A stretch of 64,000 nucleotides of DNA from an uncultured Gammaproteobacteria bacterium (GTDB taxonomy: Bacteria; Pseudomonadota; Gammaproteobacteria; JABCZS01). The DNA lies in NCBI GenBank assembly GCA_963848305.1, contig CAWKDC010000001.1:1184001-1248000 (forward strand), given 5' to 3'. Made by a program: the position numbers and the translations under genes. Shown here in pieces: positions 8,709 through 39,021 of this stretch. The notes under the pieces are model-generated. The model had not been told where the DNA came from. It saw only the letters and a list, made by a program, of their open reading frames with translations, and searched no databases. The first letter of the stretch is position 1. Each line of letters starts with the position of its first letter.

Positions 8709-8723
8709 ACAAGGGAATGCAAC

Positions 8724-10466: not shown

Positions 10467-10468
10467 AC

Positions 10469-12140: not shown

Positions 12141-12152
12141 TGGATCAACAAC

Positions 12153-13757
12153 ATGATTAATGCACCGAAAACACAAGTGTCTCCAGGTATCAATTACGTC
12201 AACTCGATTGAGGATATGCCTCGCTTTTCAAAATTGTTGTTCACTGAAAAAGAGGCTATACATTTGACAGATGAAGAGTTGTCCTGGTTTTTGCTGGCGG
12301 AGGGCGCTCTTTCAGAAGGTGAGCGAAAGGTCGCTTACTTGCTCGTGAGTCAAAATATTCCAAGCCAGATGAACCAACGTGCAAAAACATTTGCGCAATT
12401 GTTGCGCCGCACCCACACCATCAAGGTTATTGGCACATCCCGTGATATTCTCAAGCTGGTAGAAGATCACATCATGCTGGATGAATCTCATGAAGAAAAA
12501 ATTCCAGTGAATGAAACAGAGTTGTATAATTCCATCAACGATATGTTCACACGCGCAGTGGAAATGAATGCTTCTGATATCCATATCGAAGCTTATGAAA
12601 GAAGAACAGATGTCAAATTTCGTGTCAATGGCATGTTGGTTAAGGTGCTTGAGTTTGCTCAAGAATATTCCCATGAATTGGTGCGCATTTTGTATAACGT
12701 GTTAGCTGTTGAAGGTTCAAAGGATATTCAATTTGATGAACACAAAATGCAATCTGCCATTGTTGAAAAAACCATATTGGGAAAATCATACCGTGTACGT
12801 TTACAAACAGCGCCGCGCTATCCCTACGGTTATTCCATTGCACTGCGTCTATTACCACTTGAAACACGCAGCAGTGGCGCGATTGAATCGCTGGGCTATA
12901 CCGCAGATCAAGTTAAGGTATTGCAGCGAGCAGGCATGAAGCCCACTGGCGCGCTGATTTTTGCGGGGACAACAGGTAGTGGTAAATCAACCACATTGGC
13001 GAATTTGATTGCAGATAAAATCAATAAAACGAAAGGTGTTCGCAAAGTCATCACCATTGAAAATCCCCCTGAGTACGTGATCAATGGTGCATTACAAGTT
13101 AATATCAATGACACCAGTGATGAAGCACATGCGACATTTGCAGATGCCATTAAAGTCGCCATGCGTATGGATCCCGATGTATTGATGATCGGGGAAGTCC
13201 GCGATGATAGAACTGCTAAATTATTGCAAGATTCTGTTCAATCAGGTCACCAAGTATTTACCACTGTTCATGCACAATCTGCACTTGGTATTTTCGAGCG
13301 ATTGGTGGGATTGGGTTTCGAGAGAAATGTGCTCACATCGCCTGGATTTTTAAGTTTGCTCATGTATCAAGTGTTGGTGCCCATTAATTGTCCGCATTGC
13401 GCCATGACATTGTCTGATTTTGAGAAGACAGCCGTAGATATCTTGGATAAAGAATTGATTGTTCGTGTTAAGGCAGTCTTGTCAGCGGATGAATTGAACA
13501 AACTCAGGTTTCGTCGCGTAGAGGGCTGTGATCAGTGTAACCATTCTGGATTTCTTGGTCGATCCGCTGTTGCTGAATATATTGAACCAGATGATAAATT
13601 ATTGGCTTTTATTGCGAAGGAAGATTATCAGGGCGCACAAGCGCATTGTAAAGAAGTGGGTATTATTCCTGTCTTCTCGAATGTGCTAGATAAAGTCAAA
13701 TCGGGTGAATTGGATCCTCATTATGCTGAAGATAAAGTAGGCTACTTGACGGGGTAG
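12153..13757 (+). CDS. pilQ: Type IVb pilus assembly ATPase (PilQ/BfpD, GspE family)
   Basis: ASDIHIE, GTTGSGKST, TIENPPE, MRMDPDVLMIGEVRD, GHQVFTTVHA, CPHC..CDQC. Confidence 0.95.
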   Translation: MINAPKTQVSPGINYVNSIEDMPRFSKLLFTEKEAIHLTDEELSWFLLAEGALSEGERKVAYLLVSQNIPSQMNQRAKTFAQLLRRTHTIKVIGTSRDILKLVEDHIMLDESHEEKIPVNETELYNSINDMFTRAVEMNASDIHIEAYERRTDVKFRVNGMLVKVLEFAQEYSHELVRILYNVLAVEGSKDIQFDEHKMQSAIVEKTILGKSYRVRLQTAPRYPYGYSIALRLLPLETRSSGAIESLGYTADQVKVLQRAGMKPTGALIFAGTTGSGKSTTLANLIADKINKTKGVRKVITIENPPEYVINGALQVNINDTSDEAHATFADAIKVAMRMDPDVLMIGEVRDDRTAKLLQDSVQSGHQVFTTVHAQSALGIFERLVGLGFERNVLTSPGFLSLLMYQVLVPINCPHCAMTLSDFEKTAVDILDKELIVRVKAVLSADELNKLRFRRVEGCDQCNHSGFLGRSAVAEYIEPDDKLLAFIAKEDYQGAQAHCKEVGIIPVFSNVLDKVKSGELDPHYAEDKVGYLTG

Positions 13758-13759
13758 GC

Positions 13760-14833
13760 ATGATCACAAAGAAAGAGTTGTATAAATATTGGATCTCATT
13801 TCGCAACGTCCTGCTGCGTCAGTTTGTTTTTACCCATGAAAGACGCGTTAATTTATACCGAAATTTGGAAATGATCACTGGTTCAGGTGTTTCATTGAAT
13901 GAAACCATCCGACTCCTATCTCGTAAATACCGAAAATACATGCCTCACTCTTTCATGCCGCTCATCATGGATGAATGGTTAAAGTCAATGGCAATGGGTA
14001 TGCCTTTTGTGAATGCGTTGGCTCCTTGGGCACCTGGCTGGGAAATGTTGTTGTTGCGGGCGGGGGGTACATCGCAAATGTCAGCGATGTTCAGCCACGT
14101 GGCTGAGTTGTCGAATAATATTATTCGCTTGAAATCGGGTGTGGTGGGTGCGATTCGATACCCGGTATTTGCATTATTCATGTTGTTCGGATTGATGTAT
14201 GTGTTTGCGTATTACGTGATCCCCAGTTTATCGACATTTCTCTCGCCGGATAAGTGGCCGCCTGTGACGAAAAGTTTATATACCTTTACGACGACTTTCA
14301 CGCACCACATCGTGCTGATTATCCTATGTTTAGTATTTATGATTGGCCTGATTGTACACAGTTTATCGGCGCTGCGTCCTGGCATCATACGTACCGCATT
14401 CAACCGTATTCCTCCTTGGTCTATTTACAAGCAGTTTCATGGGAGTATTTTTTTATTGAGTTTGGCGAGTTTGTTACGTGCGGGCAGTTCGATTGGACAA
14501 TCCTTGGACATGATCCGCGCAGGTTCCTCGCCCTATGTTTCTAGCTTGATCATTGTCATGCAAGCCAAGTTGCAAGCCGGCCGCCCTGCTGGTGAAGCCA
14601 TTCAATCAGAATTATTTGACACGGAAACCAAGATTAACCTAGAGGTTTATGCGGATGCGGATAAACTAGAAGAGGGAATTCAAGTTTTGGCTCAAGAGCA
14701 ACTTGAGGCGCAGATCGTCAAACTGGCCTTGTCGGCCAAGATTCTGGGGAACGCCATATTATTATTAGTGGTTGGCTTCATTGCTTGGAACTACATGGGA
14801 TTGATCGCATTGGAATCCTCCATGACAGGATGA
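13760..14833 (+). CDS. pilR: Type IVb pilus inner-membrane platform protein (PilR/BfpE, GspF family)
   Basis: SGVSLNE, YP followed by TM, PPWSIYKQFHGSIFLLSLASLLRAG. Confidence 0.92.
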   Translation: MITKKELYKYWISFRNVLLRQFVFTHERRVNLYRNLEMITGSGVSLNETIRLLSRKYRKYMPHSFMPLIMDEWLKSMAMGMPFVNALAPWAPGWEMLLLRAGGTSQMSAMFSHVAELSNNIIRLKSGVVGAIRYPVFALFMLFGLMYVFAYYVIPSLSTFLSPDKWPPVTKSLYTFTTTFTHHIVLIILCLVFMIGLIVHSLSALRPGIIRTAFNRIPPWSIYKQFHGSIFLLSLASLLRAGSSIGQSLDMIRAGSSPYVSSLIIVMQAKLQAGRPAGEAIQSELFDTETKINLEVYADADKLEEGIQVLAQEQLEAQIVKLALSAKILGNAILLLVVGFIAWNYMGLIALESSMTG

Positions 14834-14909
14834 TGGTGTTCCTTGATATATAAGGAATCTCTGTTAGACTCAACATGTATGGGGATTATTATTGTTAAGG
14901 AGAACTCTC

Positions 14910-15416
14910 ATGTTTCATGTTCGTCAAAAACGCGTTGCCGGTGTCACACTTTTCGAAGTTTTACTCGTGCTATTCATTGCCGCTTTTATCGCCGCTGCTG
15001 TGGCCACCATTTATGCCAAGGTTAGCCTTACCTTCAAGCAAAACCAATTGCAATCTGGCATACAAACGATGACAGCCAATATTGCTGCTGCGTATAATGG
15101 TCAATATCCGAGCGGTGCAATGGCCGCAGATACGTTATATAACGCAGGGTTGGTGCCTGCTGAGATGTACTCAAATGGCCCCATCACCCCATTTCAAGCG
15201 ACAGATGGCTGGAGTGTGACAGGTAACACAAGCACATTTTCTGTGACATTGAAGGCTATTCCCTCAGCAGTCTGTTCAGGGATGTACCAATCGTTGACCC
15301 AGATCAGCAATGGTGGGTCATTAACGATTGGTAATACAAGCGCCTCCCCATCATCAGATGTCGTCGCATTGTGTGGTGCTGCCCCAACGCAAGATATTAC
15401 CGTGACAGTGCGTTAA
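14910..15416 (+). CDS. pilS: Major type IVb pilin (PilS-like)
   Basis: Prepilin site KRVAG|VTLFEV with E+5, hydrophobic helix, GLVP, IPSAVC and a second Cys; AAGGAG RBS. Confidence 0.9.
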   Translation: MFHVRQKRVAGVTLFEVLLVLFIAAFIAAAVATIYAKVSLTFKQNQLQSGIQTMTANIAAAYNGQYPSGAMAADTLYNAGLVPAEMYSNGPITPFQATDGWSVTGNTSTFSVTLKAIPSAVCSGMYQSLTQISNGGSLTIGNTSASPSSDVVALCGAAPTQDITVTVR

Positions 15417-16940
15417 ATGTATCTACTGATCAAGCCGTTTAGGGCGGTGACGCTGTTTGAAATGCTGCTGGTACTGATCATGTCCGGTGTCATTGGTGTC
15501 GCTGCCTTTAAATACGAACATGATCAGCATCAACGTACCGTGGCAGGCAACTTTGCCGCCAAGATGTACATTTTTTCTCAAACCGTGCGTGAGTATGTGA
15601 GGGACAACCAGGCTGCGATCGAAGCAGGTACTTTTGTCCCCTCGCCGCCTGTTACGTCGCCATCCAGTTTTTCACAGTCGGTGAACAATGGACAGACAAC
15701 TTATATTTTCAAAGGCGTGAGCTGGCTCACGAATCCCAACCTGTTGCGTCCGAATAGCAAAATTCCCTACTTTTCAAGTCCTTTCACCTTCAATGATCTT
15801 AATCCACTTCAGTTGCGTACCAGCACAGGGCGAGAGGCGGTTGTTGGGGACGATGCAGTGACGGTGACGATCACCGGGCCTTCGATACAGATCAATTATG
15901 GGTTATTGTACGATGTCAGCAATCCTAACGTATCAGCAGTGCCTCGTGCTGCGGTGACGGCCGCTGCCGCCACGAAGGCAGCGGGCATGTTTGATCCAAA
16001 ATTAGGCGCCTCTGCCTATTCTTATACTGGAGGCATGGATGTTGCGGGTAATTCAGCGCCTGTGATTGCCACGTTGACAACACCCAGCGGGTTGGATGTG
16101 TATGTGCATCCAGATCAACCCATCGCATCGGGAGACATTAGTTTTCGGTCTGATGCCCCTCAAGGGAGTGCACAAATTCAAAATGTGCAGCAGATTGATT
16201 TCAATACAGCGCAACCTGGCTCAGCGATCGGTGGGCTCAACGTGATTCAATTTTCACCAGAAACAACAGTCAAATCTGAAGTGCTGACGGGCAGTCGTGG
16301 CGGTACTTCGTCGAATAACAATACTCCCACCGCCCCTGCTGCTGGAGGGGAAATGGATAATCTCGGCACGCTGAATTTCACGACGGAAGGGAATATTGGA
16401 ACCATCAACCAAATACAGCAGATTAATTTTACGGCGAACAGTGCGGTAAATAACCTGCAAACACTTCATTTCGATGGCACATCATCCAGTGCTATCACCG
16501 GTCTTGCCAGCGTGAATTTTGCTAATGGGGCATCTACTTTTACAGGGTTTGGTCCCAGACAACAGTTTTCCATTGTCTCAATATCCGATTGGTCTGTATT
16601 AGGGAGTGTGTCTTTGAACGATTTGGGGCATATGCTGGGAGTAGCAGGCCCCCAAGTGAATACTCCAGTGACATTTTCTGATCAGAGTATGCCCAACACC
16701 AGTTCACACCTATGCCTTTTGTATCAATATATTTTTCTGGACTCAAATCCACAGGGAATCAAAGGCTGTAGTCTCACCATTGGTGAAAATGGGGCATACA
16801 ATTTGTTGTTCAACCAAATGGCGCTGTGCACAGTGAGTTGTATCAGCTTTGTGCCTGTGCAGAAGGCTCAACCAATCATGCCCTCGATAGGAACACCATG
16901 TCAGGAGAACAATGGCGTGGCGAGTTGTTCCGGGGGATAA
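15417..16940 (+). CDS. PilV-like tip adhesin/minor pilin 1
   Basis: Prepilin motif RA|VTLFEML, PilV-like N domain, six stalk repeats, 4-Cys C-terminal domain. Confidence 0.8.
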   Translation: MYLLIKPFRAVTLFEMLLVLIMSGVIGVAAFKYEHDQHQRTVAGNFAAKMYIFSQTVREYVRDNQAAIEAGTFVPSPPVTSPSSFSQSVNNGQTTYIFKGVSWLTNPNLLRPNSKIPYFSSPFTFNDLNPLQLRTSTGREAVVGDDAVTVTITGPSIQINYGLLYDVSNPNVSAVPRAAVTAAAATKAAGMFDPKLGASAYSYTGGMDVAGNSAPVIATLTTPSGLDVYVHPDQPIASGDISFRSDAPQGSAQIQNVQQIDFNTAQPGSAIGGLNVIQFSPETTVKSEVLTGSRGGTSSNNNTPTAPAAGGEMDNLGTLNFTTEGNIGTINQIQQINFTANSAVNNLQTLHFDGTSSSAITGLASVNFANGASTFTGFGPRQQFSIVSISDWSVLGSVSLNDLGHMLGVAGPQVNTPVTFSDQSMPNTSSHLCLLYQYIFLDSNPQGIKGCSLTIGENGAYNLLFNQMALCTVSCISFVPVQKAQPIMPSIGTPCQENNGVASCSGG

Positions 16941-16949
16941 GGGGAAATC

Positions 16950-18506
16950 ATGTTACTACGTAAAAAGGTGAGAGGGGTAACCCTTTTTGAAATGCTGTTG
17001 GTATTGTTGGTGTCAGGAAGCATTGCAGTGGCTACTTTTAAATACCAGCAACAACAAAAAGTCAATGCTGTTGCCAATGTGTTGGCAAATAGGATGTATT
17101 TATTTTCACAAACCGTTCGAGAGTATGTGAGCGATAATCAGGCTGCGATCATGGCAGGCACGTTTGTGCCTACTCCTCCTGTGGTGCAACCCTCTTCTTT
17201 TCAAACCACTGGCAGCGGCGCAAAACAGACCTATGTTTTCACAGGGGTAAGTTGGATTAACAATCAAAGCCTTGTGCGCCCAAGCACTGGACAGCCTTAC
17301 GTGAGTGCTTCAAGCCCTATTTCCTTCAATAATCTTTCGCCTTTAGAATTAGGCAGTATCGATGGAAAGCTGATCGGAGATGAAGCAGTCACTGTCTCGA
17401 TTTCTGGTGCCAACATTGTGATCACCTATGGCATGTTGTATGTGCCTGCTGTGGGAAGCAAGAATCCTGAGCCGCAAGCAGCCGTTGCAGGCAATGCGGC
17501 GAAACGCGCAGAAGGTATTTTTGATCCCTTGCTTGGCGCTTCTTCTTTTTCCTATACAGGCGGTTTGGATCCTCAAGGCGCATTGGTGCCCATTGTAGCG
17601 ACGTTAAGTGAATCACTTGCGCCAGACAATGATATACAGGTGGGCCAACCCCTGAGTGGCAATATTGTTTTTGCAGGTAATAATGCTGCATCAGCGGGAT
17701 CCACAACAGAGGGTACATCGACAGAGACAGGGACAGGGACAGAGACAACAGGGACAACAGGGACGACAGGGACACAAGGAGGCACTGCCACAACAGGTGC
17801 GGCCACAACAACGACACCCGCAACAAGCCAGAATACGGGCAGTATTCAAAATGTGCAGAGTATTCAATTTAACCCCGCAAATAATAACAATGAAATTTCG
17901 GGGTTGGAAAACATGACTTTTGGATATTCAACAGCCAGTGGGCAGGCTGCACAAACCGGTGGACAAACGGGTGCCGCAGGTGGAGCCGTACAGAGTGGCG
18001 GCAGTACGCTTGGGACACCCGGGGAAATTGACAATTTGGGTACACTGAATTTTGCGCCGGAGACACCAGGCACTACGCCGACGGTGATCAACAATATTGA
18101 GACCGTGAATTTTGCCACGGGTGGCAATGTGACCAATCTTCAAACCATGAATATGGCTTCTGGGGGAACCATCGACGGTTTGGCCAGCATCAGCTTCACC
18201 CCTGCCAGTGGAGGGCCAGCGCAAGTATTCAGTGGCATTGCGATTCAGCAACCCTTTTCTTTATTTGCACAGGATGTGGGATCATCCGCATCGGGCGGTC
18301 ATACGCCTGTTTCTTGGCCCGGTGGGGCAGTGGCTAACACGGCGAATTATTTCTGCGGCTTATCAACGGCGCAGTTCATTGATGGCGTTCCTGCTTCAAC
18401 GGCAAAAGGGTGCCAATTGTTAGTGGATAGCAGCGGAAATTATACTGTGAAGATGACAGCGATGAACCAATGTAGCGTCATTTGTTTTAAATTTGCGCCG
18501 CCGTAG
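16950..18506 (+). CDS. PilV-like tip adhesin/minor pilin 2
   Basis: RG|VTLFEML; paralog of the preceding ORF (MYLFSQTVREYV, GTFVP, GDEAVTV); Thr/Gly tract; 4-Cys tip. Confidence 0.8.
   Translation: MLLRKKVRGVTLFEMLLVLLVSGSIAVATFKYQQQQKVNAVANVLANRMYLFSQTVREYVSDNQAAIMAGTFVPTPPVVQPSSFQTTGSGAKQTYVFTGVSWINNQSLVRPSTGQPYVSASSPISFNNLSPLELGSIDGKLIGDEAVTVSISGANIVITYGMLYVPAVGSKNPEPQAAVAGNAAKRAEGIFDPLLGASSFSYTGGLDPQGALVPIVATLSESLAPDNDIQVGQPLSGNIVFAGNNAASAGSTTEGTSTETGTGTETTGTTGTTGTQGGTATTGAATTTTPATSQNTGSIQNVQSIQFNPANNNNEISGLENMTFGYSTASGQAAQTGGQTGAAGGAVQSGGSTLGTPGEIDNLGTLNFAPETPGTTPTVINNIETVNFATGGNVTNLQTMNMASGGTIDGLASISFTPASGGPAQVFSGIAIQQPFSLFAQDVGSSASGGHTPVSWPGGAVANTANYFCGLSTAQFIDGVPASTAKGCQLLVDSSGNYTVKMTAMNQCSVICFKFAPP
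17718..17825 (+). repeat. Low-complexity tandem repeats (ACAGGG/ACAACAGGG) encoding a Thr/Gly linker
   Basis: acagagacagggacagggacagagacaacagggacaacagggacgacagggacacaagg. Confidence 0.85.
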
Positions 18507-18549
18507 TCTATACTGAATCGAATCTGAACAGTCATCCAAGGGGTTTTTT

Positions 18550-19566
18550 ATGTTGCGTTCCTTGAAAAAATATGCCGCTTTTTCACTGTTTGAAATTTTA
18601 TTGGTACTGGTGGTGACAAGCATCATTGCTGTCAGTGCCATGAAATATGCGCAACAAACCAAACAAAATAATGTCGCAGATGTGTTGGCTCAAAGAATGT
18701 ATTTCTTTTCACAAGCGGTGCGCGCATTCCAGAGTGATCATCCGGGCATTGAAGCGGGCACGTTTGTTTGTCCAACGCCTGTTGCGGGTTCTACCTGTCA
18801 AAAAAATGCAGATGGTTCGTATGATTTTACTGGGGTGACGTGGCTCACCTCTTTGGTTGATCCTAATACTCAGTTGCCGATTTATTTAAATGCGGATTTT
18901 ACTTTTGATAATTTGGCGCCACTGGAACTGCGCAGCCTGGATGGGCAACAGGTTGATGATGCGGCGATCGTGGTGAGGATGAGTGGCCCGAATATCACGA
19001 TTGATTATGGTTTGTTGTATGATTTGCAAGATCCCGAGAATGCGCAAATTGAGCATGCGATTTCTGCCAATGCGGCACAGAAAGCGACTACGATGTACGA
19101 TCCCCAAGTCGGTCCCTCTTCATTCACCTATGTGGGTGGATTGAGTGCGACGGATGGTTCAAGCTTGCCGATTGTCGCTAAACTGGGTTCACCTGGCACG
19201 AGCGATGCATTTTTGCGTCTGGACGGCACGAGCCAGATGCGAGGGGATATTAATGTGGGCGGAAAAAATATTCATGGGGTGGATAAGGTAGCGTTCAACC
19301 AGGGTGGGGATTTTAGGGGAATTGGGGGTAAAAAGAAGAGCAGTTTTGAAGCGGATACAACAGAGGTTAATAGACCACTGTCTGATCAATTTGGAGATTC
19401 TTATGACGATGTCAGCACCTGCTACTTGACTGAGGTTCGTATACGTTCTTCAGGTGGATATTGTGAAATTTATACTGAATCCAGTGGTGGGCCTAGAATA
19501 GCAGGAAGATATAGGATGCGAGCCAAAACGAGCATTTGTTCAGCTGAATGTATTCGATTTAGATAA
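18550..19566 (+). CDS. PilV-like tip adhesin/minor pilin 3
   Basis: AA|FSLFEIL; shared N domain; FLRLDGTSQMRGDINVGGKNI is typical of the PilV constant region; 4-Cys tip. Confidence 0.82.
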   Translation: MLRSLKKYAAFSLFEILLVLVVTSIIAVSAMKYAQQTKQNNVADVLAQRMYFFSQAVRAFQSDHPGIEAGTFVCPTPVAGSTCQKNADGSYDFTGVTWLTSLVDPNTQLPIYLNADFTFDNLAPLELRSLDGQQVDDAAIVVRMSGPNITIDYGLLYDLQDPENAQIEHAISANAAQKATTMYDPQVGPSSFTYVGGLSATDGSSLPIVAKLGSPGTSDAFLRLDGTSQMRGDINVGGKNIHGVDKVAFNQGGDFRGIGGKKKSSFEADTTEVNRPLSDQFGDSYDDVSTCYLTEVRIRSSGGYCEIYTESSGGPRIAGRYRMRAKTSICSAECIRFR

Positions 19567-20239
19567 TCTTCTCCACCCACAAATCCCACACTTGATGCCC
19601 CAAATTCAACCCGCGTGCTTCAAACGCAGACACCACGCGATTGGGGCGCGGAATAAACCCGCTGCCATCGGGTGATGCATTCACAAAACGCGGATCAGCA
19701 TTGAACACAGCAAGCATGTGCATGGCATAATCTTCCCAATCGGTTGCACAATGAATAAACGCGCCGGGTTTCAATAATGGATAAACAGTGTTTAAAAATT
19801 CAGGTTGAATCAAACGTCGTTTATGGTGGCGAATTTTCGGCCAAGGGTCGGGAAAGAAAATTTGAATGCCTGATAAAGATTGCGACGGCAAGCGTTTCAA
19901 TACATCCATCACATCTTGATGACATACACGCACATTTTTCAAACTTGCTTCATGCAGATGATTTAAAAACTGCCCAATACCGGGACGGTGCACTTCGACA
20001 CCGATAAACCCTTGATGCGGATGTTGTGACGCTTGCGCGAATAACGATTCACCCTTTCCAATCCCGATTTCTAAAATAATGTCGTCGAACGGCAACAAGG
20101 TTTTCAAATCAATGTTGTCATCACCGCGCGGGATTTCATACAAGGGCAGTAAGTTTTCCAGCGCGCGTGCCTGCGCATCCGTCAAACGGGTTTCACGTTT
20201 GACGAAACTGCGGATGCGACGGGGAAAGGGTACGGTCAT
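19559..20239 (-). CDS. trmB: tRNA (guanine-N7)-methyltransferase
   Basis: IRSFVKR, LEIGIGKG, GVEVH, FFPDPWPK.RHHKRR, ATDWEDYA. Confidence 0.97.
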   Translation of the reverse strand: MTVPFPRRIRSFVKRETRLTDAQARALENLLPLYEIPRGDDNIDLKTLLPFDDIILEIGIGKGESLFAQASQHPHQGFIGVEVHRPGIGQFLNHLHEASLKNVRVCHQDVMDVLKRLPSQSLSGIQIFFPDPWPKIRHHKRRLIQPEFLNTVYPLLKPGAFIHCATDWEDYAMHMLAVFNADPRFVNASPDGSGFIPRPNRVVSAFEARGLNLGHQVWDLWVEKII

Positions 20240-21706
20240 TTTTTCTGCATTAACTCTTTCATGCGATCAAATAATTCGAGTGATTTTTGATTGGGATGGC
20301 TGAAACGGCAACCCCACGTTGCGCCAATCAACCCCATGATAAAGCCCGGCAATAGTTCGTATAGTGTGAAAATGCCGCCGACTGTGTGACCCAATATCGC
20401 CCATACCATGGCGGTGCCAGCGCCCATCAGCATGCCATATAAGGCTCCGGTGCGTGACATGTTGCGGTAAAAAAGTGAAACAAGCACAACAGGGCCGAAG
20501 GTTGCGCCTAACCCGCCCCAGGCGTGAGAGACTAACACGAAGACGCTGGGATTGGGATGATCTGCCATTAAAAAGGCGACACTCGCGATCAACAACACAG
20601 ACAAGCGTCCCATCCACACCAATTCTTTTTGCGATGCTGCGGGGCGGAAAGCATGTTTGTAAAAATCATTCACCAAGGCAGAGCCTGCTGCCATCATGAC
20701 CGCAGCCACTGTGCTGATGATCGCCGAAATAATTGCGGCCATGATGATCGCTGACGCCCAGGGGTTCAATAACAATTTGACGAGCGCAGGCAACACGGCT
20801 TCCGATGTAGGCAGCGTGCCTATCGAGAAATAAGCGATGCCGACAAAACCACTTAGCACGGCAGAGCCCAGCGCAATGACCATCCACGTCGTGCAAATGC
20901 GGCGGCCATACGTGATCGTTTCTTCATTCCGCGCAGACATGAATCGCACCAAAATATGGGGCTGACCAAAATAACCCAATCCCCACGCAATCGATGTGAA
21001 GAAAGAAATATCCAAAGCGACATTCCACAGTGAAGTTTTCTCAGGCGCAACGGCAATGATATGCGCATACAAGTTGCTCCATCCGCCTTCAAATCCCCAT
21101 ATGGCCGCGACAGGCACCATGACCAGCGCGACCAGCATCAACGTGCCTTGAAATAAATCGACCCAGTTCACCGCAAAATAACCCCCCACCACGCAATAGG
21201 CGATAATGATGGGCACTCACCCACAGCGCTTGATGGTAATCCATGTCCGCAGCGGTGACGAGCAGTTTTGCCGCGCCGACAAAACCTGAAGCGGCATACA
21301 CGGTGAAGAAGATCAGGAAGCAGAAGGCGGCGATATAACGCAAATATCCCGCACGAATGGCAAAACGATTTTCCAGATAGGCTGGTAACGTCAATGAATT
21401 GGACGCCACTTCTGTGTACATGCGCAAGCGGGGGGCAACGAATAACCAGTTGAGGTAACTGCCCACCAATAAACTGATGGGCAACCATGCTTCTCCAAGC
21501 CCTGTGACGTAGACAATCGCCGGCAGGCTTTGCATCAACCACGCGCTCATGTCGGAGGCGGCAACCCCCATCGCGGTGATGGTCGCATTGAAGCTGCGGC
21601 TGCCCAAGATATAATCAGCATGGGTGTGCGTGCGGCGGTAGGCGAGCAAGGTGATGCATAATATGCAAAGTGAGTAGACTGAGAAAGTTGTAATCAAGAC
21701 ATTCAT
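20236..21706 (-). CDS. putP: Sodium/proline symporter (apparent frameshift near 21215)
   Basis: ORF 21089-21706 (ASDMSAWL, APRLR) and ORF 20236-21216 (WGLGYFGQPHILVRFM) are the N- and C-halves of PutP. Confidence 0.9.
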
Positions 21707-21791: not shown

Positions 21792-23361
21792 ATGAAAAGC
21801 TTACTCGGTATCCTCATCAAATCCGTCCTTGCCCTTGTGGTTTTCTTCGGCATCGCTCTGCTCGCTCTGAGTTTTTTTGCGAATCCCGAGCGCCTCAAGC
21901 CCTACGCAATCCAATACGTACAAGATAAATTTCAGCGTACATTGTCTGTCGGTGATATTTCATGGCGTGTTTTTCCCAAATTGGGCTTATCGTTGGATAA
22001 TGTGACATTGAGCGACACGCCGGCTTTTGGGAACGCTAATTTTGCGGCGATGAAATCGGTGAGCGTGTTTGTGGACACCTTGAGTTTGTTGGCGGGTCAC
22101 GTGAACGTGAAAACGGTTGAATTCGTCGATGTGAAAGCGAATTTAAAAACCACTGCAGCGGGTGTCAACAGTTGGGATGATTTGGCGACATCCCCCACCA
22201 GTGATACCAAAGCGGATTCTGCTGAAAAGGCACAAGCCAGTGGCGGAAAGGGATTGTCCATCAGCGATTTGAGTTTCAACATTGAAAAAATTGAGATTCA
22301 AAATGGTGAATTTAATTATGTTGATGATCGCGCCAAATCGACGTATAAAATAACAGAATTGAACTTTCAAGGCGAAAACATCAGCACGGATAAAGCATTC
22401 CCTGTGTCGATGAGCTTTGGATTATCGAGCTCTTCACCAGCGGTGACTGGCAAAATCAGCGCTAAAGCATCTTTAAAGGTTCCCATGAAAAATGGTGCTG
22501 TGGATAAGAGTGGCGTTACCTTAGAGGGTACCGTTGATATCCCTTCTATCAACCTGCAAGGGATTAAAATTTCTTCTTTGAAAGCGCCTGTTAAAGTGGC
22601 GAATCGGGTGCTGAAGTTGAATGGCATGACGGCGTCATTTTACGGCGGTAGCTTGGGCGGGAATGCGACGATTGATTCGAGCAGCGTGCCTACCAAAGTA
22701 TCCGTGGATTACAATTTGAAAGGCGTGCAAATGGGCCCCATGTTGAAGGACACCGGCAGCAAGGATACCATTACGGGCACGTTGACGATGAAGGGCAATG
22801 TGTCGTTTAACACATCAGCGGATAAAAAACAAACCATGAGAACGTTGGATGGTCAAGGCCAAATGGAAGTCAAAAATGGCGTATTGAAGGGTGTGGGCAC
22901 TTGCTTATTTTTACGCGATGGGATCAAATTTGATCAATCCTAAAAATTTGATTGCATCGCGCCCCAACAATGGACAAACTGATTTTACCACCAGTACGGC
23001 GCATTTTACTTTTAACAAGGGCGTGTTGAGTAATTCCGACTTTGTGATTTACAACACCGGCATATATGGTTCCGGCGCAGGTACAATCAATTTGGTGAGT
23101 GATCAGATAAGCTATCGTTTTCGTATTCAAGGCGCAAAGCAAGGCGCCAACGGTATTGAACCTGTGGGCACTGCAATCCCCTTGCAAATTTCAGGTACGA
23201 CCAGTAATCCTACCATCGGTTTAGATATCCCCGCCTCTTTGCTGGAGGGCGTAAAGCAAGGCGTATTGCAGGGGTTGAATCCTGCGCCTCAGAAGGGTCA
23301 ACAAGGTGTGGGCGGCGTGGCTGGGCAGATCCTGAATGTGTTTGGAGGCGGGAGCAGGTGA
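21792..23361 (+). CDS. asmA: AsmA family protein (apparent frameshift near 22895)
   Basis: N-terminal anchor, WRVFPKLG, NSWDDL; second ORF supplies the AsmA C-terminus (GVLSNSDF, GAGTINL, IPLQISGT); asmA-mutY synteny. Confidence 0.85.
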
Positions 23362-28574: not shown

Positions 28575-28886
28575 ATGAACACACATCCGCTCAATCCCAT
28601 GTTAGCCAAAGAGTTATTGGATTTAGGCCAATGGCTGCGCACGCTTCGAAAGAAGCGAAAAATCACCATTGAGGAGATGTGTGTACGTATTGGTGTTAAA
28701 AACCCACGGACTGTCAGCAAAATCGAAAAGGGAGACCCGACAGTGTCGCTGGGCACATTCATTGAATACATTAATATTTTGGGTTTGGCCCGCAATGTTT
28801 CTGAGCGCATTTTGGGAGATTATATATCGGTAGTCACTGACCAAAAGAGAAAACCCGTTTTTAAAGATGAGGATATGAACTTTTAA
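28575..28886 (+). CDS. XRE-family HTH protein, HipB-like antitoxin
   Basis: LRTLRKKRKIT...TVSKIEKGDPTVSLG; stop overlaps the hipA start. Confidence 0.88.
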   Translation: MNTHPLNPMLAKELLDLGQWLRTLRKKRKITIEEMCVRIGVKNPRTVSKIEKGDPTVSLGTFIEYINILGLARNVSERILGDYISVVTDQKRKPVFKDEDMNF

Positions 28887-30070
28887 TGAAAGAAGAAATT
28901 GTTTATGTATATTTAAATAATGCATTTGTTCCTGCGGGACGTTTAGCATTTGAGCCTGCTGGTCGTTTTTCTAGGGCATATTTTCGCTATGGCGAAGAAT
29001 ATCTAAAACGAAAAGATGCGATGAGTATTGATCCTGTACAACTGCCACTTGTTGGAAAAGAATTTGTTACAGAACAGGGTTTTGATATGTTTAATGGCAT
29101 CAGAGATGCTGGCCCTGATCGCTGGGGTAGATATTTGCTTGATAAAAAATATACTCGAGGATTGGATGAATTAGATTATATTACATTGCTTGGGCATGAT
29201 CGAAGTGGTGCGTTGGGTTTTGCAGATCATGCGCAAGGTATGGTTAAACCTATTTCCAAAAGACTGGATTTAAAAATATGTATCGACGCAGCAGAACAAG
29301 CCCTTTCTGGAAAAAATACCCCTGAATTGGAAGCTTTTTTAAATTATGGGCCATCATTGGGTGGTGCTCGACCCAAAGCAACGGTGACATGGAATAATAA
29401 ACCTTATGTTGCGAAATTCACGGTATCAATGGATAAAAAAAATGAAGCTTTGATTGAGTACGCCACCATGTCATTGGCAAAAATATGCGGAATGAATGTG
29501 CCACTGCTGGACAAAACACAGGTTTCAGGTCGTGATATTTTTTTAATTGAACGGTTTGATCGAAAAACAGATGCTATGGGGGAACATCCTATTCCATTTA
29601 TGTCAGGTCTCACGGCCACAGGATTTCATGAGCAGGATTATCAACAATGGAGCTATTTGTCTCTGTGCGATGCTATCAATCGCTTCAGTCAAGATCCTGT
29701 TGCAGATAAAATTGAATTATTTAAGCGTATGGTATTCAATATTTTGGTATTTAATAATGATGATCACATGCGCAATCATGGATTTATATATGTGGGTGAG
29801 CAAAAATGGCGCTTGTCACCACTCTATGATGTAGTCCCCGGCGTATTGAGCGGCGAAACCTATATGTTGGTGATGATTATCGGTGAACGGGGCAAGGAAG
29901 CCAGCCTTGAAAATGCACTGTCATCGGCAGGGTATTTTGGCTTGACCATAGATCAAGCAAAAGGGGTTTGCAAAACAATTGCAACACAGGTGAAAAAATG
30001 GGAGACCCATTTTAGGGCATGCGGCGTAAGTTCTCAAGATATTGAAAAAATTAGACATTCTTTCAGATGA
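28886..30070 (+). CDS. HipA-family kinase toxin
   Basis: DAGPDRWG, SLGGARPKA, IERFDR, NNDDHMRNHGF, LSPLYD. Confidence 0.95.
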   Translation: MKEEIVYVYLNNAFVPAGRLAFEPAGRFSRAYFRYGEEYLKRKDAMSIDPVQLPLVGKEFVTEQGFDMFNGIRDAGPDRWGRYLLDKKYTRGLDELDYITLLGHDRSGALGFADHAQGMVKPISKRLDLKICIDAAEQALSGKNTPELEAFLNYGPSLGGARPKATVTWNNKPYVAKFTVSMDKKNEALIEYATMSLAKICGMNVPLLDKTQVSGRDIFLIERFDRKTDAMGEHPIPFMSGLTATGFHEQDYQQWSYLSLCDAINRFSQDPVADKIELFKRMVFNILVFNNDDHMRNHGFIYVGEQKWRLSPLYDVVPGVLSGETYMLVMIIGERGKEASLENALSSAGYFGLTIDQAKGVCKTIATQVKKWETHFRACGVSSQDIEKIRHSFR

Positions 30071-33432: not shown

Positions 33433-33639
33433 CTACACCCCTCCCACCGCATGCGGCACTATCCACCCCATATAAAATGACAGGATCAGCACCAAGATCA
33501 GCAGCAAGCTGAGCCCCACACGCACGAAGAGCGATCTCAAGGCTTTTTGGGACGTGCCAGTTTCTTTCATCAAAAAAAACAGGCTCGCAAACAGGGCAAT
33601 GAGGATGGTGGCCATTAAGATCAATAAGATGAGTTTCAT
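33433..33639 (-). CDS. Twin-TM small protein (DUF2909/HIG1-like) of cox loci
   Basis: LFASLFFLMK...SLFVRVGLS...GWIVPH; divergent from surf1 as in cox clusters. Confidence 0.85.
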   Translation of the reverse strand: MKLILLILMATILIALFASLFFLMKETGTSQKALRSLFVRVGLSLLLILVLILSFYMGWIVPHAVGGV

Positions 33640-33708
33640 TTCGGTTCCTTTTGTCAAAATTGGCATATACTTAAGGTGTTTCAATTCACCATACATGGGG
33701 ATAGTACG

Positions 33709-34284
33709 ATGAATTCAACCAAAATCATAGTGGCCATGCTCATGATACTGTGGCTGAGCCTCTCAAGCGCGGGCTCTGTCCCTGATCCTACCCCTTGCCC
33801 GCCGGGGGCTATATGTCCTCAGCCACCCTCTATCCCTGAGCATTGGGTTTTTGATAAATCTCTCGGCAAAATGAATCATACGTTTAAATCCTTGACTGAT
33901 GAGATAAGCCTGGTGAATGGGTTGCAAGTGGCCTTGGTTGCGTTATGCAATGATCCTCAAACACCTGCAGACACCCGGACTTGTGAAGATGTCATGACGA
34001 AACCCAAATACACACAGCCCTATATGTTGAAATATGCAGGGGGTGTTTTGGATGTGAAGAAACGATTTATCTTGGGTTCATCCATCTCAGGGGTTAAAAC
34101 AGCCATCGACCAAGCGCTTGTTAACCACTCGAAGATCCATCAACTGCTTATCCAATTGAATAAGGATGCCCTGGTCAATCAGAAATCATGTGATCCTGCT
34201 AATAACCCAGGCACATTAGGAGATCTTCCTTGTGATCCTATCTATACTTCCTCTTATGAATTGTATCAGGAGACAACGCCATGA
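33709..34284 (+). CDS. Secreted Cys-containing repeat protein A
   Basis: Signal peptide, Pro-rich segment, two helix-C..C..PxYxxxYxL repeats. Confidence 0.75.
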   Translation: MNSTKIIVAMLMILWLSLSSAGSVPDPTPCPPGAICPQPPSIPEHWVFDKSLGKMNHTFKSLTDEISLVNGLQVALVALCNDPQTPADTRTCEDVMTKPKYTQPYMLKYAGGVLDVKKRFILGSSISGVKTAIDQALVNHSKIHQLLIQLNKDALVNQKSCDPANNPGTLGDLPCDPIYTSSYELYQETTP

Positions 34285-34769
34285 CAGTGGGACAATCTTT
34301 ATCACCGATAGCACGGGCACTCGCGATTCTGCTGGTAACAGCCGGGTTTTTTGTGGCCAGTGCCGAATCGCTGCCCAAACAAATTGATGAAAATTTAAAG
34401 ACTTTGCAGTCAAAATTAGGGTATTTGAACACCCATACCACTTCTTTCCTCAAAACTTGCACAAAAGCCAACAGCTGCGCACAACAAGATCAACAATACA
34501 TGCCTTATTACACGCTACAATATTGTGCGGGTACTAGCTGCGCTTATCAGCCTATTGTTTTGAAACCAGACAACGTGGCGTTGGACGGTTTGTCTTCGCA
34601 TAAGAAGGCAATAGACAACGATATTAAATATATCACGATGATCCTTGAGGTGTTGAATCACAATACGGCGACATGCTCAACTTCGAACTGTCATACGAAG
34701 CCTCAATATATTGGTGTGTATACCCTGGTTCAATGCGCTGGCCAGAATGTCAGTTCATGTCGACGCTGA
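34281..34769 (+). CDS. Secreted Cys-containing repeat protein B
   Basis: Signal peptide ending ASA; two clear internal repeats; ATGA coupling to protein A. Confidence 0.75.
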   Translation: MTVGQSLSPIARALAILLVTAGFFVASAESLPKQIDENLKTLQSKLGYLNTHTTSFLKTCTKANSCAQQDQQYMPYYTLQYCAGTSCAYQPIVLKPDNVALDGLSSHKKAIDNDIKYITMILEVLNHNTATCSTSNCHTKPQYIGVYTLVQCAGQNVSSCRR

Positions 34770-35269
34770 TCCCGCCGTCACCACCGTCCGCTCCCACTGT
34801 GGATGATCTGCTTAGCATGATCAGGGCATTGAACGTCAAGACGGAAGCCTTTTTTGCCGCATGTGACAGCAAAGTCATAAGGGATAATGGTCTTACGTCT
34901 GAGGCAGAATGTAATAATACCGGTTCTTGTCCGTATTGCGAAATCACTCTGTGGTCATGCACGAAAGGAGAAAATGGTTGCAGAGATCCCCTCGTAGCAG
35001 AGACGCGCATCACCCAGTTCTCGGGGTACCCTGCCAACTATGACTTTACCCAGTCAGCGCAAGACATTCAGGCGGCTAAAGCAGCCCTGAATACTGCAGT
35101 GAATGACCTCAATGATTCTATCGCCAATCAGAATCCACGAACCATCTATTACGTTGGCAGCAGTGCAAAATTAGGGGTGAGCGCCAGTTGTTATTATGCA
35201 GAACATTATTATTCCCAAAAGGCACCGCCGCAATGGACATTCAGGATGTCAAATGGTCAATGTTACTAG
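34757..35269 (+). CDS. Cys-rich protein C (possibly the C-terminal half of protein B through a 1-nt indel)
   Basis: No signal peptide; starts with a Pro linker and then another copy of the repeat. Confidence 0.65.
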   Translation: MSTLIPPSPPSAPTVDDLLSMIRALNVKTEAFFAACDSKVIRDNGLTSEAECNNTGSCPYCEITLWSCTKGENGCRDPLVAETRITQFSGYPANYDFTQSAQDIQAAKAALNTAVNDLNDSIANQNPRTIYYVGSSAKLGVSASCYYAEHYYSQKAPPQWTFRMSNGQCY

Positions 35270-35331
35270 GCAATGGCTTGTGAATACTCGGGCGTGGGGG
35301 GTATAATGCCCCCGCGTATCCCGAGGTTTGA

Positions 35332-36048
35332 ATGAAGCAATATCTATTAAAATGGCTCCCCACGCTGGCATTCCTGGTGATGCTGCCCTTCCTGATATCG
35401 CTCGGTTTTTGGCAGTTGTCCCGGGCGCATGAGAAAGAGGCCATTCTGGCGGCCTTGCAGGATAGCACCCATCATACCCCCCTCAGTCTAACTCAGGCTT
35501 TGCAGCATCCCGAACGATACCATTATTATGGCATTGCCATTCAAGGCCATTTCCTGCCCAACACAGATGCCTTGTTGATGCATCAAATGCAAGCGCAAGA
35601 TGTTGGGTACCATGTCCTGACCCTTTTTCAGCCAGAGACAGGCGGGAAGCCGGTCTGGGTGGATCGTGGATTTTTATCAGTCAGACACAAAAATGAAATC
35701 CCTTCGCCCCCTACCCAGCCCTTACTGATCCGTGGCATAATAGACCTCCCTGAGCCCGACCGGTTTATTCTGGGTGAGAACGTGCTGTTTCCCTCCCAAC
35801 GCCCGCTGGAAATGCAGCGTGTTGATGTGGATGAGCTTGAAAAGCTAATGGGAAAACCAGCATTACCCATCACGGTGTTGCTTGAAACAGATGTACAGGA
35901 TGGGTTGACTCGAGACTGGGAAATTGTCGTGATGCCGCCCGAAAAACATGTGGGCTACGCCGTGCAGTGGTTTGCGATGGCGCTGTGTTTGGCGGTGATC
36001 TATTTGATATTGATGTTTAAAAAGCGGGGCAAAGATGAAAAAAAATAA
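35332..36048 (+). CDS. SURF1 family cytochrome oxidase assembly protein
   Basis: LGFWQLSRAHEK, GYHVLT, VDRGF, HVGYAVQWF. Confidence 0.95.
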   Translation: MKQYLLKWLPTLAFLVMLPFLISLGFWQLSRAHEKEAILAALQDSTHHTPLSLTQALQHPERYHYYGIAIQGHFLPNTDALLMHQMQAQDVGYHVLTLFQPETGGKPVWVDRGFLSVRHKNEIPSPPTQPLLIRGIIDLPEPDRFILGENVLFPSQRPLEMQRVDVDELEKLMGKPALPITVLLETDVQDGLTRDWEIVVMPPEKHVGYAVQWFAMALCLAVIYLILMFKKRGKDEKK

Positions 36049-36556
36049 GACAGCATTAAAATTAACCTTACTACTATTGGTGTTTTTAGCCCCTTTTTTC
36101 GCCGCACTGTTTTTATACCAAGCGCGCGATGGTTTTCATTTCATGACAAACAATGCGGGGAGCTTGATTCGTCCCAGTGTTTCATTTGATCTCGTGGGTA
36201 CACTGCCTGCTGAACGGCGCTGGTGGATGGTGTATTACAGCAATGCAGGGTGTGATGCAGCGTGCGACAAAGCACTCAATCATTTTAATACCATTCGGGA
36301 GTCATTGCTTGAAGACAGCAAACGATTGGGGGTGATCCTCATCACGAAAGAGAAAGTCGAGCATGTGTCCGTGAAACATGTCGTGATCATACAAAATCAG
36401 CAACCCCTTCCAGCAGGTTTGCCGATAGAAGAAGGGCGTGCGATATGGATGGTCGACCCGCTGGGTAATATTATTTTAAATTACGATCCGGTTGCGCTAG
36501 ATAACCGATTATTATTGGATTTACGCCACTTATTAAAAGTTTCTCAAATTGGGTAA
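36035..36556 (+). CDS. Conserved cox-locus membrane protein with CxxxC
   Basis: TM anchor, N.G.LI.P, CDAAC, VDPLGN, DLRHLLKVSQIG. Confidence 0.8.
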   Translation: MKKNKTALKLTLLLLVFLAPFFAALFLYQARDGFHFMTNNAGSLIRPSVSFDLVGTLPAERRWWMVYYSNAGCDAACDKALNHFNTIRESLLEDSKRLGVILITKEKVEHVSVKHVVIIQNQQPLPAGLPIEEGRAIWMVDPLGNIILNYDPVALDNRLLLDLRHLLKVSQIG

Positions 36557-37513
36557 TGGGTCATATGATGCCACTTTTTCGACGCTTATTATTACTGTCC
36601 TGTGTATTCGCATTATTTGTAGTGATGCTGGGTGCATACACGCGTTTAACGGATGCTGGGTTAGGGTGCCCCGATTGGCCGGGATGTTACGGCCACATGG
36701 TAGTGGAAAGCACAGTTATTGACAGTACGAAAGCGTGCGACCGAAATGATTCACCGTTATTTTGCGGGCATTTTGGGTTTGTTCATCGCGGGTTTAACGA
36801 TCAGTAGTATTGTTCAGAAAAAATCAATTGCCGGTTTAATGATCATGATTTCATTGCTCGTTATTTTTCAAGCTGCACTCGGGATGTGGACAGTCACTTG
36901 GAAATTACATCCCACAGTGGTGATGGGGCATTTATTGGGCGGGATGTTGATATTCAGTTTATTGTGGTTGGCATTTTTAAAATCAGGTTCTCTTGGAAAA
37001 CAGCACGATGCGTCGTGTGGGTTTAAATTTCTATTGCGATTAGGGGTTGTGTTCGTGTTCGCTCAAATCGCGTTGGGCGGTTGGACATCCGCTAATTATG
37101 CAGCGATGGCCTGCCTTGATTTTCCCACTTGTGAGGGCAGCTGGTGGCCGGTGTCACATTTGAAAGAAGCATTCCAATTAGTCCATCCCATTGGTGCCGA
37201 TTATGAAGGCGGTGTTTTTTCACATGACGTACGCGTCACGATTCAATTTATCCATCGATTGGGCGCATTGTGCGTCACGGCTGTGTTGTTATTGATGACA
37301 GTTATTGCGATGCGAATAGCCTCATTACGCCCCGCGGCGTTGATGGTAGGGGTATTGCTGGGTGTTCAAATTGCATTGGGGATCAGCAATGTTCTATTCT
37401 TACTTCCCTTGCCTGTGGCTGTATTACATAATGGTGTGGCAGCATTATTATTAGCTGCTACCGTCGCATTGTGTTTCCGCTACAGTCACCCGCGGGGGCC
37501 ACATGTGGGATAA
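36556..37513 (+). CDS. ctaA: Heme A synthase COX15/CtaA (apparent frameshift near 36738)
   Basis: LGAYTRLTDAGLGCPDWPGCYG then EMIHRY, HLLGG, IHRLGA, LHNG in the next frame. Confidence 0.92.
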
Positions 37514-38366
37514 AGCCCGTTATTATGTTGGTCTGACAAAACCCAAAGTGGTGATCTTGATGTTGATTACCGCGTTGGTTGGGATGTTTTTATCAACAAA
37601 TACTTTGCCACCTGCGTCGATATTATTGTTGGGCACTGTTGGGATTGGGCTCGCTGCTGCGGCGGCTGCCGTGTTAAATCACATTGCCGATCAAAAAGCA
37701 GATCTGCTCATGCGTCGCACGCAAAAACGTCCGCTGCCCATGCAACAGGTGACGCAAACGCAAGCGATCATTTTTGCAATCGTCTTGACCGTGCTCAGCA
37801 TGACGATCCTCACTGTGTTTGTGAATCCATTAACCGCTGTATTAAGTTTTGCGAGTTTAATTGGTTACGCAGGCATTTACACAGGGATATTAAAACATTT
37901 GACGCCACAAAATATTGTGATTGGCGGACTGGCCGGTGCCACGCCGCCGTTATTGGGTTGGGCTGCCGTGACTGACACGATTTCTCCCCATGCGTTGTTA
38001 CTCGTGTTGATCATTTTTGTGTGGACGCCGCCCCATTTCTGGTCACTTGCCCTGCACCGCTTGGAAGATTATCGAAAAGCAAATATCCCTATGCTGCCCG
38101 TCACGCACGGCGTGCCATTCACGAAGCGTTGCATTGTTCTGTATACCGTATTGCTGTGTGCCGTGAGTATATTGCCTTTTGTCGTGGGTATGAGCCACTG
38201 GATTTATTTGATTGGCACCGTCATATTAGACGCGCTGTTCCTGGGTTTTGCGCTACGCTTATTAAGGAGGAATGAGCCTTTCATGGCGATATATACCTTC
38301 CATTTTTCGAACATTTATTTATGTGTTTTATTTACGTTATTACTGGTGGATCATTATGTACGATAA
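37503..38366 (+). CDS. cyoE: Heme O synthase (protoheme IX farnesyltransferase)
   Basis: LTKPKV, MRRT.KRPLP, NIVIGG.AGA.PPLLGW, WTPPHFW. Confidence 0.96.
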   Translation: MWDKARYYVGLTKPKVVILMLITALVGMFLSTNTLPPASILLLGTVGIGLAAAAAAVLNHIADQKADLLMRRTQKRPLPMQQVTQTQAIIFAIVLTVLSMTILTVFVNPLTAVLSFASLIGYAGIYTGILKHLTPQNIVIGGLAGATPPLLGWAAVTDTISPHALLLVLIIFVWTPPHFWSLALHRLEDYRKANIPMLPVTHGVPFTKRCIVLYTVLLCAVSILPFVVGMSHWIYLIGTVILDALFLGFALRLLRRNEPFMAIYTFHFSNIYLCVLFTLLLVDHYVR

Positions 38367-39021
38367 AAAATTAGGAAGACGGGCGATTCCCTTTGCCATT
38401 CTTGGGATATTATTGGCTGTGTTGGGTTACATGTTATTGCCGAGCACCTCGAGTGAGGGTTTAGGAAAAATTGTGCCAGTGCATGGGATTTATTTCACTG
38501 AACCTAATTATTTAAATCCTTTTCAATTGAAAAGCACCAGCAAAAGAACGACGTTCACTGATCAAGATTTGCAAGGGCACTGGACGTTGATGTTTTTTGG
38601 GTTCACACATTGTCCCGATATTTGCCCAACGACGTTGGCCATGCTGAACACTGCCATCACGGATTTTAAAAAAGCGTCACCCAAATTAAAAGAACCCAAA
38701 GTGGTTTTCGTATCAGTAGATCCTGATCGCGATAAAATCGACATGTTGAAAAAATATGTCACTTATTTCAATCCCAATTTTACAGCAGCCACTGGTAGCG
38801 AAGATGCATTGCGTGGTCTCACCCGTCAATCAGGCATTGTGTTTGATAAAATTGTATTAGATGAAGCTGATCCCAGCAATTATGCTGTTGAGCACTCAAC
38901 GAGTATCATTTTAGTGAATCCACGCGGCGCCATACAGGCGATTTTCACAGCGCCGCATGATTCGGCTACATTAACCACCGAATTAACAGCTGTTTATGAA
39001 GCTTATGGAAAGGGAAAGTAG
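38356..39021 (+). CDS. SCO family copper chaperone
   Basis: FFGFTHCPDICP, VSVDPDRD, VEHS. Confidence 0.95.
   Translation: MYDKKLGRRAIPFAILGILLAVLGYMLLPSTSSEGLGKIVPVHGIYFTEPNYLNPFQLKSTSKRTTFTDQDLQGHWTLMFFGFTHCPDICPTTLAMLNTAITDFKKASPKLKEPKVVFVSVDPDRDKIDMLKKYVTYFNPNFTAATGSEDALRGLTRQSGIVFDKIVLDEADPSNYAVEHSTSIILVNPRGAIQAIFTAPHDSATLTTELTAVYEAYGKGK

Follow-up and report, generated by a model that had tools for sequence, protein, structure and literature searches.

A lineage-restricted block of putatively exported, cysteine-rich repeat proteins between DUF2909 and surf1

Between the genes for DUF2909 and SURF1, the 64,000-nucleotide stretch of gammaproteobacterial DNA analyzed here (the window) holds a block, about 1.6 kb long and specific to its lineage, with three small open reading frames (ORFs), which we call A, B, and C. 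The locus raises the question of what such a block is doing at the head of a cytochrome oxidase assembly cluster. A preliminary description, made from the letters of the window, proposed that three coupled ORFs share one helix-disulfide unit of an unrecognized family, and that they encode either a new periplasmic or secreted fiber or coat family or a copper- or redox-linked accessory of oxidase assembly. Our favored reading, to which, taken as a whole, we give about even weight, is that the block encodes lineage-restricted, Sec-exported, cysteine-rich repeat proteins that occupy a variable slot and are accessory in nature, not oxidase factors.

The repeat is clearest within gene B (34281-34769, 162 amino acids in this assembly), which like gene A (33709-34284, 191 amino acids) lies on the forward strand and was read from its ORF and translation. 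Local alignment, motif matching, and a unit alignment all place two tandem units in B, at 34365-34565 and 34566-34766. These are 33% identical, contain four cysteines each, and align to one another with a score of 67 (Z = 8.85) that 0 of 500 shuffles reach. Gene A likewise carries two units on the same strand, at 34063-34281 (motif at residue 150) and at 33844-34062 (motif at residue 69), the latter matching a profile built from all four units at 3.7e-31, a self-match by construction. A relaxed form of the unit motif, [LV]N-x(2,12)-C-x(4,15)-C-x(1,12)-Y-x3-Y-x-L with its elements within about 40 residues, matches two sites each in A, in B, and in P0002, a homolog of A described below, and has no match among the 3,562 remaining six-frame ORFs of at least 100 amino acids (the full set of 3,564 ORFs comprises 818,370 residues). 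None of 20,000 shuffled versions of A, and none of 20,000 of B, contained two matches, and a single match appeared in 5 and 23 per 20,000, respectively; these counts overstate the significance of the motif because it was written after the units had been seen. The conservation of the motif in P0002 provides independent support for the unit.

Profile comparison using hhalign extends the relationship from B to A. A unit of B aligns with the second unit of A at P = 2.7e-4 and with the first at P = 0.046, and the full-length proteins align at P = 0.0068, as compared with P of at least 0.08 for reversed controls. Overall, the sequence data support a homologous unit common to A and B, and the four copies would have arisen via local duplication. 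The unit appears to be a previously undescribed one of about 55-70 amino acids, consisting of an amphipathic helix that ends in L/V-N, a Cys-Cys loop, and a tyrosine-rich Y-x3-Y-x-L stretch, the last of which we would guess, from structure models, to form a beta-hairpin. A search of 400 class-level genomes with the four-unit profile returned the profile's own four units and matches in 2 of the 399 other genomes at E = 0.003-0.004, where about 1.6 such matches are expected by chance. The idea that all three ORFs possess this unit holds for A and B and is not supported for C, which carries just a partial pattern (LN-x9-C-x15-C) that falls short of the full motif. The four-unit profile does not detect C at E up to 0.01, and hhalign aligns C with the unit at P = 0.01 over 24 columns.

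Gene A begins with a signal-peptide-like N-terminus, followed by a proline- and cysteine-rich segment (C30 and C36) and the two units, each of which contributes a cysteine pair (C80-C92 and C161-C175). Among 5.8 billion protein clusters we found a single homolog, P0002, a 191-residue protein that is identical to A at 139 of 191 positions, with 6 of 6 cysteines invariant and both motifs kept. Identity is 91-96% across the signal peptide and the Pro/Cys-rich N-terminus, and 74% and 59% in the two units. For B and C the same clusters contain near-identical allelic forms only, and an exhaustive phmmer search of 1.84 billion representatives also returned no relative of B besides itself. Within the genome's own ORFs, phmmer searches with A, B, and C give self-matches only. 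A scan of genome contigs for P0002 produced no match, nor did scans of metagenome contigs using a junction DNA pattern and an alignment of A, in a collection that may omit records near the window.

The distribution of the block among relatives is equally narrow. Across 60 related genomes, one of which (G050) is unpublished and counted only as a negative, A, B, and C give short, chance-level matches in 7, 5, and 4 genomes, respectively (per-genome E of at least 0.005), and some of these matches contain stops. The 11 genomes that belong to the same family, among them both members of the same genus (99% and 95% complete), yield no match to any of the three. A and B, to which C probably belongs as an extension of B, are real genes confined to one species-level lineage.

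That the block separates two normally adjacent genes, as first proposed, is confirmed by the same-genus genomes, in which DUF2909 and surf1 are about 38 bp (G002) and about 70 bp (G001) apart. No flanking direct or inverted repeats were found at the ends of the insertion, and there is no compositional break, with a GC fraction of 0.43-0.49 within the block and 0.44-0.52 alongside it. The same slot is filled differently in sister genera. In one genome of another genus in the same family (G006) it holds 5.3 kb (L029, 1131-6259) encoding an LRR_6 protein (1.4e-45), an OTU protease-like protein (2.1e-15), and two AAA_14/DUF4143 ATPases, and in a second (G004) it holds an ankyrin ORF (4.3e-10; L030, 2799-3149). 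Because sister genera hold LRR, OTU, and ankyrin genes at this point, the DUF2909-surf1 interval is a hot spot for the insertion of lineage-specific cargo.

Inspection of the translations bears out the signal peptides previously noted for A and B. The N-terminus of A has K5, a hydrophobic core of 13 residues, and the sequence SSA/G at the putative cleavage site, and that of B has R12, a hydrophobic core, and ASA/E; both therefore look like Sec signal peptides of the n-h-c type, in which small residues occupy positions -3 and -1. The N-terminus of C is not hydrophobic. Cysteine counts are even in all three (6, 8, and 8 in A, B, and C), and cysteine makes up 3.6-6.0% of residues versus 1.2% in 800 long ORFs of the genome; for A and B this amounts to 3-5 times the genome level. 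In agreement with the periplasmic or secreted nature suggested for them, A and B thus have the appearance of exported, disulfide-bonded proteins. The genome encodes DsbB (1.8e-32) and a DSBA-family protein (5.3e-7), as well as the type II secretion pseudopilin GspG (3.2e-40) and DotI/IcmL (4e-55). A Dot/Icm system would suggest a way of life in association with hosts, like that of the Legionellales.

From these features we infer export, disulfide pairing, and an extracytoplasmic role for A and B. In the model that we propose, A and B, or a B-C fusion, would be exported by Sec and have their cysteines paired after export by the DsbA/DsbB system. They would then act outside the cytoplasm, whether in the periplasm, at the surface, or after release through the type II secretion system, and may serve as accessory proteins, probably host- or environment-facing, of a Dot/Icm-bearing bacterium.

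The family is indeed unrecognized, as had been stated. A, B, and C match no family beyond noise in Pfam, NCBIfam, PHROGs, or PADLOC (E up to 0.1) and nothing beyond noise among PDB sequences (E up to 1), and the ESM Atlas holds no usable match for A or C. AlphaFold2 models made without an alignment have a predicted local distance difference test (pLDDT) score of 44.6 for B and 45.8 for C. These low-confidence models show a long helix followed by beta-strands, twice per protein, which we treat as a secondary-structure guess only.

Gene coordinates and peptides given earlier for A, B, and C agree with the ORFs as we re-read them, and several lines of evidence show that all three are real ORFs. 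For each of them the annotated frame has the best codon usage of the six (mean log codon probability of -4.08, -4.12, and -4.16), with the other frames at -4.44 or worse and the long genes of the genome at a mean of -3.97 (standard deviation 0.07). Fragments identical to the window occur in metagenome contigs from four runs in four studies of soil and wetland, one of which may be the window's own source; these span the DUF2909/A, A/B, and C/surf1 junctions, so that both ends of A are crossed. The 191-residue form of A is present in the public protein collection and a 202-residue form with a GTG start is absent from it. The start ATG of B overlaps the TGA stop of A (ATGA), with GGAGA upstream of B. 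ORF C (34757-35269, forward strand) encodes 170 amino acids from the ATG at 34757, has a proline-rich start and 8 cysteines including a CPYC motif, and overlaps B by at least 13 nt. Alternative ATG starts for C lie at 34733 and 34673, and the public gene call (P0004, 178 amino acids) uses the former.

The boundary between B and C proved to be variable. Three assemblies carry three alleles of a site on the forward strand within a short palindrome (34758-34765), which differ at 34760-34762 in otherwise identical surrounding sequence. In the window allele (GT-CG-AC), B ends after C-R-R and C begins at the ATG at 34757. A second allele, present in a Logan contig of 9,239 nt, is shorter by one base, giving a B of 174 amino acids and a C of 173 amino acids from an ATG at 34748 (P0005 and P0003). 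The third comes from the X3 contig, which covers 34704-34962 at a depth of 4.4, and carries a GGGC insertion and a G>C change at 34762 that together create the palindrome GTGGGCCCAC; here B and C form one open frame of 330 amino acids, joined via a proline-rich linker.

On inspection C lacks a signal peptide, and none of its possible starts is preceded by a Shine-Dalgarno-like sequence. On these grounds C is probably the C-terminal extension of B and not a separate gene, and the claim of three coupled ORFs that share the unit, sound for A and B, is overstated for C. The fused form makes the most biological sense, because C lacks both an export signal and a Shine-Dalgarno sequence yet has 8 cysteines, and we lean towards a single B-C gene that is present in at least some members of the population. 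A more speculative proposal, which we consider improbable, is that the palindromic indel site (GT-G-AC, GT-CG-AC, or GT-GGGCCC-AC) is a contingency switch of a newly born family, alternating between a two-unit B and a 330-residue B-C and so altering what a Dot/Icm-bearing soil bacterium shows to hosts or predators. Programmed frameshifting from B into C was also considered and rejected, as inspection found no slippery heptamer in the overlap. A 13-nt inverted repeat (34728-34740 and 34822-34834, 92% complementary, 81 nt apart) flanks the variable junction and may be due to chance.

How far the window's own allele can be trusted is a separate matter, as the assembly is frameshifted in conserved genes elsewhere. 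The cox15/ctaA gene for haem A synthase (36556-37513) has one extra base near 36736-36742 that splits it into two overlapping ORFs, and the G002 ortholog is intact; the split may be an artifact of assembly, or a gene for oxidase assembly may truly have been inactivated. A sodium:solute symporter gene on the reverse strand (20236-21706) is also split into two ORFs, which match positions 1-129 and 130-406 of Pfam SSF, with an extra C in a C-run near 21225-21240 that looks responsible for the shift. Because these two genes are split as well, the indel state of the window assembly is unreliable, and its split ORFs should not be taken at face value. Additionally, an AsmA-family ORF of 383 amino acids (21792-23361, forward strand) covers the first third of its profile only and is followed by an overlapping 156-residue ORF without a family, which may reflect another frameshift.

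Several observations weigh against our reading. The significance expected of the repeat is borne out within B but is weak between the two proteins: pairwise alignments of A units with B units give a Z of about 3.3 or less, which 4-5 of 500 shuffles reach, and a hidden Markov model of the two B units retrieves neither A nor C from the 22,621 ORFs of the genome at E up to 10. Neither B nor C has a diverged homolog against which selection could be measured, and the helix-hairpin description of the unit is a guess because both models fall below a pLDDT of 50. The fused B-C allele comes from a single contig of depth 4.4. In two of the three assemblies B and C are split, which would place a cysteine-rich C in the cytoplasm. 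Lastly, the block lies directly upstream of surf1 on the same strand with no terminator-like site after C, and for this reason co-transcription with the cox assembly genes is possible.

This last arrangement also speaks for A, B, and C as accessory proteins of the periplasm that would assist cytochrome oxidase assembly through copper or redox chemistry, since the genes that follow the block are surf1-PA0111-cox15-cyoE-sco. SCO1/SenC and PA0111-family proteins share with A and B this neighborhood, the presence of cysteine pairs, and a predicted periplasmic site, and C contains CPYC while A and B contain several CX4-5C pairs. Both same-genus genomes, however, keep the whole surf1-PA0111-cox15-cyoE cluster without the block, so oxidase assembly does not require it. 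The SCO1/SenC and PA0111 families do not match A, B, or C, and their true members sit downstream; Pfam and NCBIfam likewise give no match to the PCuAC, thioredoxin, or glutaredoxin families, and despite its CPYC motif C has no thioredoxin- or glutaredoxin-fold match among these or the PDB sequences. Histidine and methionine are scarce (4 and 3 in A, 4 and 2 in B, 1 and 3 in C), by our rough estimate about one protein in three at this cysteine content would contain a CxxC through chance alone, LRR, OTU, and ankyrin genes occupy the same slot elsewhere, and surf1 is preceded by a promoter-like site of its own, described below. We therefore regard a copper or redox role as highly improbable. The cox linkage put forward earlier is not supported by the neighborhood comparison, and the link of A, B, and C to the cox genes appears positional only, with proteins that would not be part of oxidase assembly, a process on which the block does not bear.

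Three further alternatives would keep the block apart from the oxidase. One is that the insertion is recent or in decay and now does little or nothing for the cell, with ORFs that are still open and a B/C junction that is breaking up. Within DNA that otherwise does not differ, a single site has three alleles, and two of these shorten B and leave C as an orphan; the block is missing from both same-genus genomes; and its codon scores lie 1.5-2.7 standard deviations under the long-gene mean. Decay is nonetheless unlikely given that A is conserved in P0002 with all of its cysteines and both motifs, that contigs from the four studies (one perhaps the window's source) are otherwise identical where they cover the block, and that the B/C split may be an assembly error of the kind found in cox15 and the symporter gene. 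A cross-linked structural role, as disulfide-bonded subunits of a surface fiber, coat, or non-canonical pilus, is suggested by the richness of the proteins in tyrosine and cysteine, by a type IVb pilus cluster 14 kb upstream, and by the low-confidence models, in which helix-then-beta-hairpin units with terminal disulfides recall a pilin layout. The pilin fold consists of a long helix followed by beta-strands, with a disulfide near the C-terminus, and type IV pilins and pseudopilins thus share the layout guessed for A and B. They differ in having a prepilin leader (G, E5) and a hydrophobic N-terminal helix, where A and B have ordinary Sec-type signals and tandem units. As A, B, and C lack a prepilin-type signal and match no pilin family (Pfam and NCBIfam, E up to 0.1), as unrelated housekeeping genes lie between the pilus cluster and the block, and as no neighbor resembles an usher, chaperone, or sortase, we doubt a structural role strongly.

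The remaining alternative makes A and B a secreted toxin or bacteriocin, with C as a cytoplasmic partner or immunity protein. It would fit a lineage-specific locus in a variable slot whose genes are translationally coupled and in which, for two of three alleles, C is separate and lacks an export signal. But no toxin, immunity, or defense family match was found in Pfam, NCBIfam, PHROGs, or PADLOC, 8 cysteines would be unusual for a cytoplasmic protein, and a fused B-C allele exists, all of which make a toxin-immunity pair very unlikely. Our favored reading therefore continues to be that of exported, cysteine-rich accessory proteins. If it is true, the unit represents a new small disulfide-stapled domain among exported bacterial proteins, and the block a clean case of gene birth or expansion by tandem duplication within an insertion hot spot in bacteria that associate with hosts. 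Genomes of this kind commonly contain orphan secreted genes at variable sites, and the A/B family is a lead for structural genomics rather than a surprise.

Both genes that flank the block score above the Pfam gathering cut-off. On its left, and divergent from A, is the gene for DUF2909, a twin transmembrane helix small protein (33433-33696, reverse strand), which matches Pfam PF11137 at 5.6e-16 (58.6 bits against a cut-off of 31.4) and NCBIfam twin_helix at 3.8e-13. A DNA alignment of the window with G002 stops at an ATG common to both (33640), which is probably the conserved start of the gene. A terminator-like hairpin lies on the DUF2909 side at 33444-33422. On the right is surf1 (35332-36048, forward strand; Pfam SURF1 at 9.8e-38, 131 bits against a cut-off of 23.4), which shares 75% and 70-71% identity with its same-genus orthologs. 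Between C and surf1, a consensus scan finds a promoter-like site (TTGTGA-18-TATAAT, 35278-35307, forward strand) that matches at 10 of 12 positions, as a pattern match only. Downstream of surf1 follow, in order, a PA0111-family gene (36035-36556), cox15, cyoE, and an SCO-like gene (38272-39021).

DUF2909 is inverted relative to surf1 in the window genome and in G002 and co-directional with it in G001 and the other genera examined, which points to a tiny local inversion. COX3 lies at G000:C1:1250971-1251840, about 3 kb past the end of the window and about 31 kb downstream of surf1, a distance that places the oxidase structural genes apart from the assembly cluster in this genus; in G006 and G004 it directly precedes DUF2909.

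Elsewhere in the window, the type IVb pilus-like cluster occupies 7953-19566 on the forward strand and encodes TcpQ, a secretin, a T2SSE ATPase, T2SSF, and a PilS-type pilin (14892-15416). Three large ORFs (507, 518, and 338 amino acids) come after the cluster and two more (417 and 141 amino acids) lie within it, and none of the five has a Pfam family. A HipA-like kinase gene (28886-30070, forward strand; HipA_C at 1.4e-44) is found about 3.6 kb upstream of the block, and a 705-residue ORF on the reverse strand (60550-62667) matches none of the Pfam families (E up to 1e-5).

Two sets of known proteins are useful for comparison with A and B. The eukaryote-like LRR, OTU, and ankyrin genes of the sister genera share with the A/B block the same insertion point and the character of lineage-specific cargo, but they encode known domains, where A and B instead combine Sec signals with a new unit. 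LRR, OTU, and ankyrin domains are typical of translocated effectors. The type II substrates NttA-NttG of Legionella reportedly have sequences that are rarely encountered in other genera, and structures are reported for NttA, NttC, and NttE (PMC7325957). They resemble A and B, for which export is putative, in being exported, in having sequences of narrow lineage, and in coming from a bacterium with type II secretion and Dot/Icm genes (PMC7325957). They show no sequence similarity to A, B, or C, and our search of PDB sequences, which should include NttA, NttC, and NttE, gave only noise at E up to 1. The tandem cysteine-rich unit is a feature of A and B that the abstract of that article does not describe for the Ntt proteins (PMC7325957). 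In function, the genus-restricted type II substrates of Legionella offer the closest analogy to A and B.

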